A DNA stretch of 64,000 nt from Escherichia coli. GTDB lineage: Bacteria; Pseudomonadota; Gammaproteobacteria; Enterobacterales; Enterobacteriaceae. Below the pieces are notes generated by a model, which was not told the DNA's origin, ran no database searches, and saw nothing but the letters and a program-made list of their open reading frames with translations. The stretch lies in NCBI RefSeq assembly GCF_046105845.1, contig NZ_CP151004.1. One strand, written 5' to 3'. The position numbers and the translations under genes are program-made. Positions 2,928 through 7,253 of this stretch are shown here, in pieces. The stretch's first letter is position 1; each line of letters starts with the position of its first letter.

Positions 2928-3390
2928 CGTTTTACTCTGTGTTGGCAATAGCATGATGGGCGATGATGGCGCAGGCCCGCTACTGGCGGAAAAGTGCGCC
3001 GCCGCGCCGAAAGGTCACTGGGTGGTGATTGACGGCGGTAGTGCACCGGAAAACGACATTGTCGCTATTCGCGAACTGCGCCCTACGCGACTGCTGATTG
3101 TCGACGCCACTGATATGGGGCTAAACCCCGGCGAGATCCGCATCATCGACCCGGATGACATCGCCGAGATGTTTATGATGACTACCCATAACATGCCGTT
3201 GAACTACCTTATCGACCAGTTGAAAGAAGATATTGGCGAAGTGATTTTCCTCGGCATCCAGCCGGATATCGTCGGCTTTTACTACCCGATGACCCAGCCG
3301 ATTAAAGATGCGGTGGAAACCGTTTATCAACGACTGGAAGGCTGGGAAGGGAATGGCGGATTCGCGCAGTTAGCGGTGGAAGAAGAGTAG
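2920..3390 (+). CDS. hycI: Hydrogenase-3 maturation endopeptidase
   Basis: 156 aa, N-terminus [22 protein letters not shown]; overlaps hycH end by 8 nt. Confidence 0.92.
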   Translation: MTDVLLCVGNSMMGDDGAGPLLAEKCAAAPKGHWVVIDGGSAPENDIVAIRELRPTRLLIVDATDMGLNPGEIRIIDPDDIAEMFMMTTHNMPLNYLIDQLKEDIGEVIFLGIQPDIVGFYYPMTQPIKDAVETVYQRLEGWEGNGGFAQLAVEEE

Positions 3391-3448
3391 TTCGTAGACA
3401 AACATGTTCACGTTTTGGAATTTGGACGTGCAATTGTGACGTGTAGAC

Positions 3449-3473
3449 GGGTGTTTACATATTGTGAACACCC
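3449..3473. promoter_or_regulatory. Inverted repeat GGGTGTT-N11-AACACCC upstream of the toxin gene; candidate antitoxin operator
   Basis: Perfect 7-bp inverted arms read directly in the sequence; a second related pair (tgttcac near 3406 / gtgaaca near 3464) lies nearby; about 85 bp upstream of the ATG at 3557. Confidence 0.35.
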
Positions 3474-3556
3474 GTGTGATCAACTACTATAGAAAAATAA
3501 ATCCGAAGGAATGGTAGTCCAGGTTTAGTCATTCAGGCGCTAATAAGGAAGTTAAA

Positions 3557-3868
3557 ATGCACATCATTTCTAAAGCGCCATTTGAAGAGTGTGCGCGCAA
3601 ATATCCTAACGACGCTCTGGCTCTACACTCATTGTATCGGGTTATTAAGGAAACGGATTTTTCTACACCAGAAGAAATGCGAACGGCGTTTCCCAACCTC
3701 GACAATTTTAGATATCGCAACAAATGGTACGTTCTGGATGTCGGCGGGAACAATCTTAGGGTTATTGCCTACATAAACTTTGTTAATAAGCGGTTCTTTG
3801 TGAAGCACATAACGAATCACGCAGAGTATGACAAACTGACACGTTACTACAGAGAGAACAAAGAATGA
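3557..3868 (+). CDS. HigB-family (RelE/ParE superfamily) mRNA-interferase toxin
   Basis: 103 aa; recognisable similarity to E. coli HigB (FPNLDNFRY...YVLDVGGNNLRVIA); SD aaggaag upstream; toxin-first order typical of higBA. Confidence 0.75.
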   Translation: MHIISKAPFEECARKYPNDALALHSLYRVIKETDFSTPEEMRTAFPNLDNFRYRNKWYVLDVGGNNLRVIAYINFVNKRFFVKHITNHAEYDKLTRYYRENKE

Positions 3869-4284
3869 CTGCTAATGCTGCACGCGCTGTTAAAGCAACA
3901 AGAGAACTGGTCAATGCAGTCCCCTTTCTGGGAGGTAGTGACTCAGAAGATGATTATCGTGAAGCACTGGAACTGGTCGAATATTTGATTGAAGAAGATG
4001 ACACCAATCCACTTATCGACTTTCTGGCGAGCCGCATTGCAGAATATGAAAACAACAACGAAAAGTTTGCCGAGTTCGACAAAGCCGTTGCAGCAATGCC
4101 GGTTGGCGTGGCGTTACTTCGTACGCTGATTGATCAACATAATCTGACCTATGCGGATTTGAAGAACGAAATCGGCTCTAAATCCCTGGTCAGTCAGATT
4201 TTGTCTGGACAACGATCCCTGACGATATCCCATATTAAGGCACTTTCAGCCCGATTTGGCGTTAAGCCGGAATGGTTTCTTTGA
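3865..4284 (+). CDS. HigA-family HTH (XRE-type) antitoxin
   Basis: 139 aa; start overlaps toxin stop (ATGA); C-terminal HTH-like segment (GSKSLVSQILSGQRSLTISHIKALSARFG) resembling HigA. Confidence 0.75.
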   Translation: MTANAARAVKATRELVNAVPFLGGSDSEDDYREALELVEYLIEEDDTNPLIDFLASRIAEYENNNEKFAEFDKAVAAMPVGVALLRTLIDQHNLTYADLKNEIGSKSLVSQILSGQRSLTISHIKALSARFGVKPEWFL

Positions 4285-4310
4285 TTTTGACTGATGCCAA
4301 ACGCCAGATT

Positions 4311-4335
4311 GCCCGATGCGCAACGCTTATCGGGC
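4311..4335. repeat. REP-like palindromic element
   Basis: gcccgatgcgcaacgcttatcgggc resembles the REP consensus; lies between the antitoxin gene and the ascB 3' end. Confidence 0.4.
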
Positions 4336-4362
4336 TTTCCTGGTTAGTGCGACAGTAGTTAC

Positions 4363-7253
<2,891 letters not shown>

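Follow-up and report, generated by a model that had tools for sequence, protein, structure and literature searches.

A Decayed REP Sequence beside the higBA Module of an Escherichia coli hycI–ascB Gap Is Very Probably a Resident Relic

Introduction

Descriptions of REP sequences and BIMEs, and of their variation from strain to strain, go back to the 1980s and 1990s. REP hairpins slow 3′-to-5′ exonucleases and help end transcription between convergent genes. A documented route by which REPs become insertion targets runs through the REP-targeting ISs (IS1397 and the IS621/IS110 family), which carry a transposase and insert inside the REP or its loop. The REPs fall into the classes y, z1, and z2, with a GTAG head as a requirement, and BIME-1 is composed of a z1 and a y REP (PMC3333891, PMC3479197). 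In vitro, the transposase TnpA-REP (RAYT) requires a full GTAG-bearing REP in cis (PMC3333891, PMC3479197). It cuts the CT dinucleotide in TGCC/TGAT (iREP site I) and in GGCC/TAC (site II), the slash marking the cut, and a change of either the C or the T abolishes cleavage (PMC3333891). The structure of BIMEs has been reported to vary between strains (PMC3333891, citing Bachellier 1997), as it does at the locus described here.

That locus belongs to a chromosome segment of E. coli in which a higBA toxin–antitoxin (TA) module lies next to ascB. The original prediction, made for a window of 64 kb (the whole stretch of DNA that was analysed), described a REP-like palindrome between the antitoxin stop and the 3′ end of ascB, at the right edge of the TA insertion. 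It went on to propose that the palindrome, REPs being hotspots of recombination and insertion, may mark how the module entered. The value of the comparison reported here lies in a negative result on that proposal and in a fixed order for the REP pair, a gene of 253 amino acids, higBA, and a set of deletions; otherwise the element matters little.

Results

The Palindrome and Its Setting

The genes of the window follow one another as hycI (ending at 3390), higB, higA, ascB, ascF, ascG, and hydN. Between hycI and ascF the following features are recognized, some of them by means of an alignment of 13 alleles (alignment A3):

3393–3556, plus strand: module-specific region upstream of higB, starting 2 nt past the hycI stop; an inverted repeat was found in it, and no REP.
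3557–3868, plus strand: higB, toxin of 103 aa (Pfam PF09907, HigB_toxin, E = 9.4e-23; RefSeq annotation).
3865–4284, plus strand: higA, antitoxin of 139 aa with an HTH_3 domain (Pfam PF01381, E = 2.1e-9; RefSeq annotation of identical loci).
4285–4290, plus strand: TTTTGA, the last TA-specific bases, with the junction at 4290/4291; B2 alleles are without TTTTGA.
4291–4310, no strand assigned: left flank of the REP, CTGATGCCAAACGCCAGATT, common to module-free alleles and the first sequence collinear in all alleles (alignment A3).
4311–4335, no strand assigned: REP core palindrome, GCCCGATGCGCAACGCTTATCGGGC, z1-like and in iREP orientation on the plus strand (uniqueness, fold, z1 match, orthologues).
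4336–4339, plus strand: decayed head tetranucleotide TTTC, for which orthologues have CTAC, the complement of the REP-defining GTAG (allele comparison).
4340–4358, no strand assigned: remnant of a BIME linker, CTGGTTAGTGCGACA, ending in the GTAG (4355–4358) of a lost y REP (alignment A3).
4363–5799, minus strand: ascB, 6-phospho-beta-glucosidase, convergent with higA (ORF list, RefSeq annotation of KE55, tblastn).

The palindrome, imperfect and 25 nt long, falls inside the interval 4296–4340 and is built of an outer stem of 7 bp (GCCCGAT/ATCGGGC), an inner stem of 3 bp (GCG/CGC), a 3-nt loop, and a TT bulge. It is contained in the 78-nt gap between the stop codon of higA (4282–4284) and that of ascB (4363–4365, minus strand), where the original prediction had placed it, with 27 nt between the stem and the ascB stop codon. 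With three mismatches permitted it is the sole match in the 64-kb window (0.00 expected from shuffles), and it is also the only full match there to the REP pattern. RNA folding of the gap gave −28.1 kcal/mol on the plus strand (z −3.4, a value matched by none of 200 shuffles) and −26.1 kcal/mol on the minus strand (z −3.1), and DNA folding of the 40-nt core gave −9.8 and −9.9 kcal/mol (z about −3). The palindrome is beyond chance expectation.

Membership in the z1 Class

The z1 consensus, which we take to be TGCCTGATGCGCTACGCTTATCAGGCCTAC, has the same length as the window element, and the two are identical at 25 of 30 positions without a gap. Of the z1, z2, and y strings used here, z1 is the one whose copy number was checked: at 100% identity it occurs at 27 or more places in each E. 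coli genome, with a median of at least 40, a figure that is itself a lower bound (at least 40 places in 4885 records). The exact window variant is a low-copy sequence, with a median of three places per genome at E ≤ 10. Among its five departures from z1, T to C and A to G face each other in the stem, so that pairing is kept, and two more turn the CTAC tail into TTTC.

The element has the GC-rich palindrome expected of the z1 class, with a hairpin predicted on both strands, and this bears out the description of it as REP-like. It is also extragenic, lying in the stop-to-stop gap of higA and ascB. The GTAG expected on the 5′ side of the hairpin's foot, or CTAC when read on the other strand, is lacking: the window has TTTC at 4336–4339. 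Orthologous copies of the core were found in 12 other Escherichia alleles. The head is CTAC in alleles L009, L011, L012, L013, L014, and L015, TTTC in the window and L004, and CTTC in K-12 and O157. Because TTTC replaces a CTAC that orthologues retain, the window copy is a decayed, non-canonical member of the z1 class. Rfam covariance models gave no match at E ≤ 1 over window positions 3350–4450, the RefSeq record of MG1655 has no annotated repeat feature in the ascB–hycI gap, and a literature search for the REP strings returned mostly primers.

The Lost Partner

In the window the element does not form a BIME: the second REP is gone, and the GTAG at 4355–4358 and part of the linker are what is left of it. 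The pair is present in the K-12, L005, L009, L012, L013, and E. albertii alleles. In alignment A3 the y REP partner, GTAGGCCGGATAAGGCGTTCACGCCGCATCCGGC, is carried by K-12, L005, L008, L009, L012, L013, and E. albertii, and by strain name the carriers include E69 and E1V33. It agrees with the crystallised REP oligonucleotide of PMC3479197 at 30 of 32 positions. The window, KE55, L004, and O157 lack these 31–33 nt of y REP, whose place is between 4358 and 4359, and there GCGACAGTAG is joined to TTAC. All four combinations of TA module and partner REP, each present or absent, exist (window, L005, O157, and K-12), and the REP structure and the module are therefore unlinked.

Small rearrangements are also seen in the linker. 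That of L009 (1822–1850) is inverted with respect to K-12 (L001 586–616), CATGGTTCGTGCGACATG and CATGTCGCACGAACTATG agreeing at 17 of 18 positions as reverse complements, and in L008 the linker between the two REPs is missing altogether.

As a possible substrate of TnpA-REP, the window copy has both CT dinucleotides changed and no GTAG-hairpin REP nearby. Since it departs from the published cleavage rules (CT sites, GTAG REP in cis), it would have lost its competence for the transposase, and we infer from its sequence that it is neither bound nor cut by TnpA-REP and is now an immobile orphan.

The Junction in Genomes with and without the Module

Window positions 3200–4600 served as the query against 5,426 complete genomes of E. 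coli, and representative alleles were fetched and compared. The flanks were found in 5,425 of these genomes and the full higBA arrangement in 932, and the 40-nt element was present at a coverage of at least 80% in 4,756. The element stands beside ascB with the same left flank (CTGATGCC) at module-free sites in K-12/ER1709, O157, E. coli E69, and HCM-27C-1, the last two of these hyp-only (with the 253-aa gene and without higBA). Beyond those strains, the element and its flanks occur without the module in Escherichia sp. E1V33, E. albertii, and E. whittamii. The K-12-type site reads GGGGTGAACCAGCTCTGATGCCAAATGCTAAATTGCCCGATGCGCTGCGCTTATCGGGCCTTCATGG, then a canonical y REP, then ascB (ER1709; MG1655 is identical), and the O157 site, CTGATAGCAAACCCCAGATTGCCCGATGCGCAACGCTTATCGGGCCTTCCTGGTTAGTGCGACAGTAGGTTACC, equals the window almost base for base.

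All 13 of the 13 alleles in alignment A3 are collinear from window position 4291 (CTGATGCC) rightwards, and the invariant columns start there. What stands to the left of 4291 is the 3′ end of one of two genes, higA or the 253-aa gene; in hyp-only alleles the flank at 4291–4310 comes straight after the stop codon of the latter. The right junction thus falls at 4290/4291, where TA-specific sequence stops 20 nt to the left of the REP stem. Relative to the hyp-only allele, a 4-bp microrepeat, CTGA, is found at both ends of the insert: hyp-only alleles L008 and L012 read CAG(CT or AA)CTGATG(C or G)C, and TA alleles L005 and L009 read CAGAACTGA, then the insert (CTTTTTGCAG to TTTGATTTTGA), then CTGATGCC.

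Homologues of the module on plasmids of Cronobacter, Salmonella, Klebsiella, Enterobacter, and Leclercia (70%–73% identity) align solely to query positions 162–893, that is, window 3554–4285, a stretch bounded by the start of higB and the stop of higA that leaves out the REP. Being absent from these homologues and present at module-free sites, the REP is not part of the mobile module. A REP-pattern search and the allele comparison found no REP at the left end of the module (3393–3556), and no IS or transposase is present at the module locus.

The placing of the palindrome at the right edge of the TA insertion agrees with where TA-specific sequence ends. There is no support for the proposal that it may record the module's way of entry: the same element, with its palindrome intact and 20 nt away from the junction, stands in its flanks at module-free sites whose junction is not rearranged, the left junction is without a REP, the locus is without an IS or transposase, and the plasmid modules end at the higA stop. 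To treat this REP as a scar of the higBA insertion, or as its vehicle, would be a misreading. Insertion assisted by mere proximity to the REP is unsupported rather than disproved, because a pre-existing REP is also what a target-site model predicts.

The left end of the module has features of its own. An inverted repeat, ACGGGTGTTTACATATTGTGAACACCCGT, lies upstream of higB at 3447–3475, with 13-bp arms (ACGGGTGTTTACA and TGTGAACACCCGT); its core, GTGTTTACATATTGTGAAC, is the only block in the higB upstream region that is conserved between the window and the alleles carrying both the 253-aa gene and higBA (hyp+higBA). This repeat is probably the operator for HigA. The window-type module abuts hycI directly, 2 nt past the stop. 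Its 164-nt higB upstream region cannot be aligned with that of the commoner hyp+higBA allele (L005 1278–1450) apart from the operator-like palindrome, and the coding parts of the two modules are about 97%–98% identical, which suggests that the left part of the window-type module has a separate recombination history. A simple loss of the 253-aa gene from the hyp+higBA allele was considered as the origin of the window allele and set aside, as the 164 nt upstream are unalignable. Many genomes have kept higA and lost higB (orphan antitoxin), with at least two distinct deletion endpoints; this type makes up about 11 of 40 rows in an evenly spaced sample of the complete-genome search (examples are L004 700–730, L009 1290–1362, and L006 2898–2925).

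Order of Events

Polarity was assessed in one genome per species with HycI, giving 80 loci, five of them from Escherichia. HigB or HigA was found at none of these 80 species-representative hycI loci, so that higBA was gained within E. coli, at a site where the REP already stood. The arrangement hycI, 253-aa gene, REP, with no higBA, occurs in E. whittamii, E. albertii, Escherichia sp. MOD1-EC7003, and E. coli E69. A remnant of the 253-aa gene like that of the O157 allele is seen in Escherichia sp. E1V33, but there the partner REP has been retained. Outside Escherichia, a pair of the form REP(CTAC)–linker–(GTAG)REP begins 8–21 nt past the hycI stop and abuts ascB in Citrobacter sp. R56 and Awk 4, Pseudocitrobacter spp., and MGYG-HGUT-00110. 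As both module-free Escherichia and Citrobacter/Pseudocitrobacter carry a REP in the hycI–ascB gap, the REP pair came first; we infer the orthology of the Citrobacter and Escherichia REPs from their position and orientation rather than from a tree.

The following succession would account for the alleles observed. An old REP pair (BIME) would have been in place between the hyc operon and the convergent ascB already when Escherichia and Citrobacter split. The 253-aa gene would then have been inserted between hycI and the REP in Escherichia. Later, and within E. coli, higBA would have been inserted between the stop codon of the 253-aa gene and the REP, at the CTGA microrepeat. The window allele, in which the 253-aa gene is absent, would in addition have lost the y REP hairpin and the CT cleavage sites, its CTAC having become TTTC. 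Various deletions, the K-12 “empty” site among them, would have come last.

The K-12 “empty” spacer (L001 491–560; L010 for MG1655) is a deletion scar in which the first codons of the 253-aa gene (5′ end, cagggATGT) are joined to its last ~30 nt (3′ end, TCTTGATGGGGTGAACCAGCTCTGA), with GATGT as microhomology. The gene itself has no Pfam match and is intact in other E. coli, in E. albertii, and in E. whittamii. In MOD1-EC7003 (L015 5268–5296) an insert of 26 nt, CTTTTCACGACGAAGAATCAGTCAGA, lies exactly between the CTGA repeats, at what is the higBA site in E. coli. It may be a remnant of higBA or unrelated; it agrees with the higBA insert in its first 5 nt (CTTTT) alone.

On the other side of the element, ascGFB is absent from B2-type E. 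coli (EC28 and a Nissle derivative), E. whittamii, and MOD1-EC7003, with the breakpoint right at the REP head (L006 3380–3440, L007 4415–4475, L011 5310–5330, L015 5310–5345, L014 5370–5430); in the two B2-type strains it is replaced by a DUF4259-like gene. E. albertii has kept both REPs and ~45 nt of the 3′ end of ascB, and because this remnant differs from the breakpoints at the REP head, asc was lost more than once.

Toxin–Antitoxin Families in the Gap

Across genera, the hycI–ascB gap or the space downstream of hycI holds four unrelated TA families (HigBA, PemIK-like, SymE, and TacAT-like). The E. coli gap (window 3391–4362) has HigB/HigA, and in two Pseudocitrobacter species a PemK/MazF-like toxin is preceded by an ORF of 90 aa. 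The SymE type I toxin is found at 17 of the 80 species-representative loci, mostly in Citrobacter, with further cases in Klebsiella spallanzanii and Intestinirhabdus, and Enterobacter sp. JUb54 carries TacA and a GNAT toxin. (The modules outside E. coli are at L025 4624–5331, L026, L027 4539–4775, L050 4549–4791, and L054 4584–5362.) It may be that addiction modules land in this gap repeatedly; a literature search for hycI/ascB together with toxin–antitoxin returned nothing relevant. Different TA families in one conserved convergent gap could interest those who study where such modules settle.

The Pseudocitrobacter cargo is trailed (L025 5330–5378) by a different, enterobacterial repeat-like hairpin, CTCCCTCTCCCTGTGGGAGAGGGCCGGGGTGAGGGG, and ahead of the cargo stands a second, diverged copy of the 3′ end of ascB. 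This suggests that the cargo was gained by exchange through flanking homology.

A Possible Role for the Hairpin

Transcripts of higBA (plus strand) and of ascFB (minus strand) would both carry the hairpin at their 3′ ends, and for these convergent transcripts it would be at most a passive 3′ barrier. To judge from what is known of REPs and from the fold predictions, it may play such a passive part. An intrinsic terminator scan of 3350–4500 did not call it, and it is followed by no T run on either strand (the tails are CTTTCCTGG on the plus and AATCTGGCG on the minus strand). Across the 13 orthologous copies no pair has changed on both sides, 96.9% of cells are paired, and shuffles do equally well; this absence of covariation is evidence neither for nor against selection on the structure, and would fit neutral decay. 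Changes that break some of the stems are found in E69, E. albertii, MOD1-EC7003, and B2.

Discussion

We conclude that the element is very probably the hycI-proximal, z1-like iREP of an old BIME: a resident relic, now an immobile orphan, that neither brought nor guided higBA.

A different role is conceivable, in which the REP was a target or hotspot that directed higBA to this place by way of a REP-specific IS, of nicks made by the RAYT, or of recombination between REPs. The junction is just 20 nt from the REP, and its AC/TGAT resembles the TnpA-REP motif TGCC/TGAT, linker sites needing C/T only (PMC3333891). Other rearrangements end at the REP edge (the loss of asc after GGGC(CTAC), the loss of the partner REP, and the inversion of the linker), and several unrelated TA modules have been captured in the gap. 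However, the REP is intact and uninterrupted, the left junction has neither a REP nor a fragment of one, no IS or transposase is at hand, and a CT dinucleotide and a 4-bp repeat are expected by chance at many junctions. Also against such targeting, in Pseudocitrobacter it is the opposite flank of the REP pair that bears the cargo, with the diverged ascB 3′ end that suggests exchange through flanking homology, and Enterobacter sp. JUb54 and most of the SymE-bearing Citrobacter are without a consensus REP pair here. On balance we hold it to be unlikely that the REP directed higBA to this site. What survives of the hotspot idea in the original prediction is that the BIME has been a focus of small rearrangements; it does not extend to the higBA event.

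It has also to be asked whether the REP pair makes the whole hyc–asc gap a capture site, in which the REP transposase nicks at loosely specified CT sites near the iREP and foreign two-gene cassettes are joined to the breaks by microhomology. If true, this would explain why four unrelated TA families are found in one gap across the Enterobacteriaceae. Cargo is seen to the left or to the right of the REP pair, or at sites with no consensus REP, and a gap that is simply permissive between convergent genes fits at least as well as REP-directed capture, which strikes us as very improbable.

The chances are very slight that the hairpin is instead specific to this locus, for example an intrinsic terminator for higBA or ascFB whose likeness to a REP is coincidental. 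The exact variant matches only about three places per genome, GTAG/CTAC is absent from it, and it is positioned at two convergent 3′ ends, all as such an origin would have it. It nevertheless matches z1 at 25 of 30 positions, ungapped and at the same length, its orthologues have a CTAC head and stand head to head with a canonical y REP, and it has neither a T tract nor a match in the terminator scan. The idea that the element arrived within the higBA module as the module's own 3′ hairpin or terminator, which would agree with its position directly downstream of higA in all TA-bearing alleles examined, has virtually no probability and was rejected, as the same flanks enclose the REP in module-free E. 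coli, E. albertii, and E. whittamii (the latter two without higBA) and the plasmid homologues stop at the higA stop and are without the REP.

Comparison with Known Systems

The element can be set against four described systems. Unlike the insertions of IS1397 and the IS621/IS110 family, the case in the window has an uninterrupted REP, and the cargo is a bare two-gene module with no IS. The likeness to REPIN/RAYT substrates lies in the ancestral pair of inverted GTAG-headed REPs, which is the unit of TnpA-REP in vitro. The window copy differs from them in having TGCC/CGAT (not TGCC/T) and GGCT/TTC (not GGCC/T), with no GTAG-hairpin REP in cis.

With the z1 REPs it shares an extragenic location and a 25-nt imperfect hairpin with arms GCCNGATGCG and CTTATCNGGC and a TT bulge, and its orthologues have the CTAC/GTAG head. 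It differs from them at stem position 4 and its partner, where the window has C-G and z1 has T-A with pairing kept, in the loop (CAA in the window, CTA in z1), and in the head (TTTC in the window, CTAC in z1). The nearest BIME type is BIME-1 (z1 + y, single copy): in K-12, L005, L009, L012, L013, and E. albertii the element stands head to head with a y REP, as a single copy. In the window, unlike BIME-1, the y partner is deleted and the structure is no longer a BIME; the linker is about 18 nt. The element is of an already known kind, an ordinary decayed copy of a common E. coli REP.
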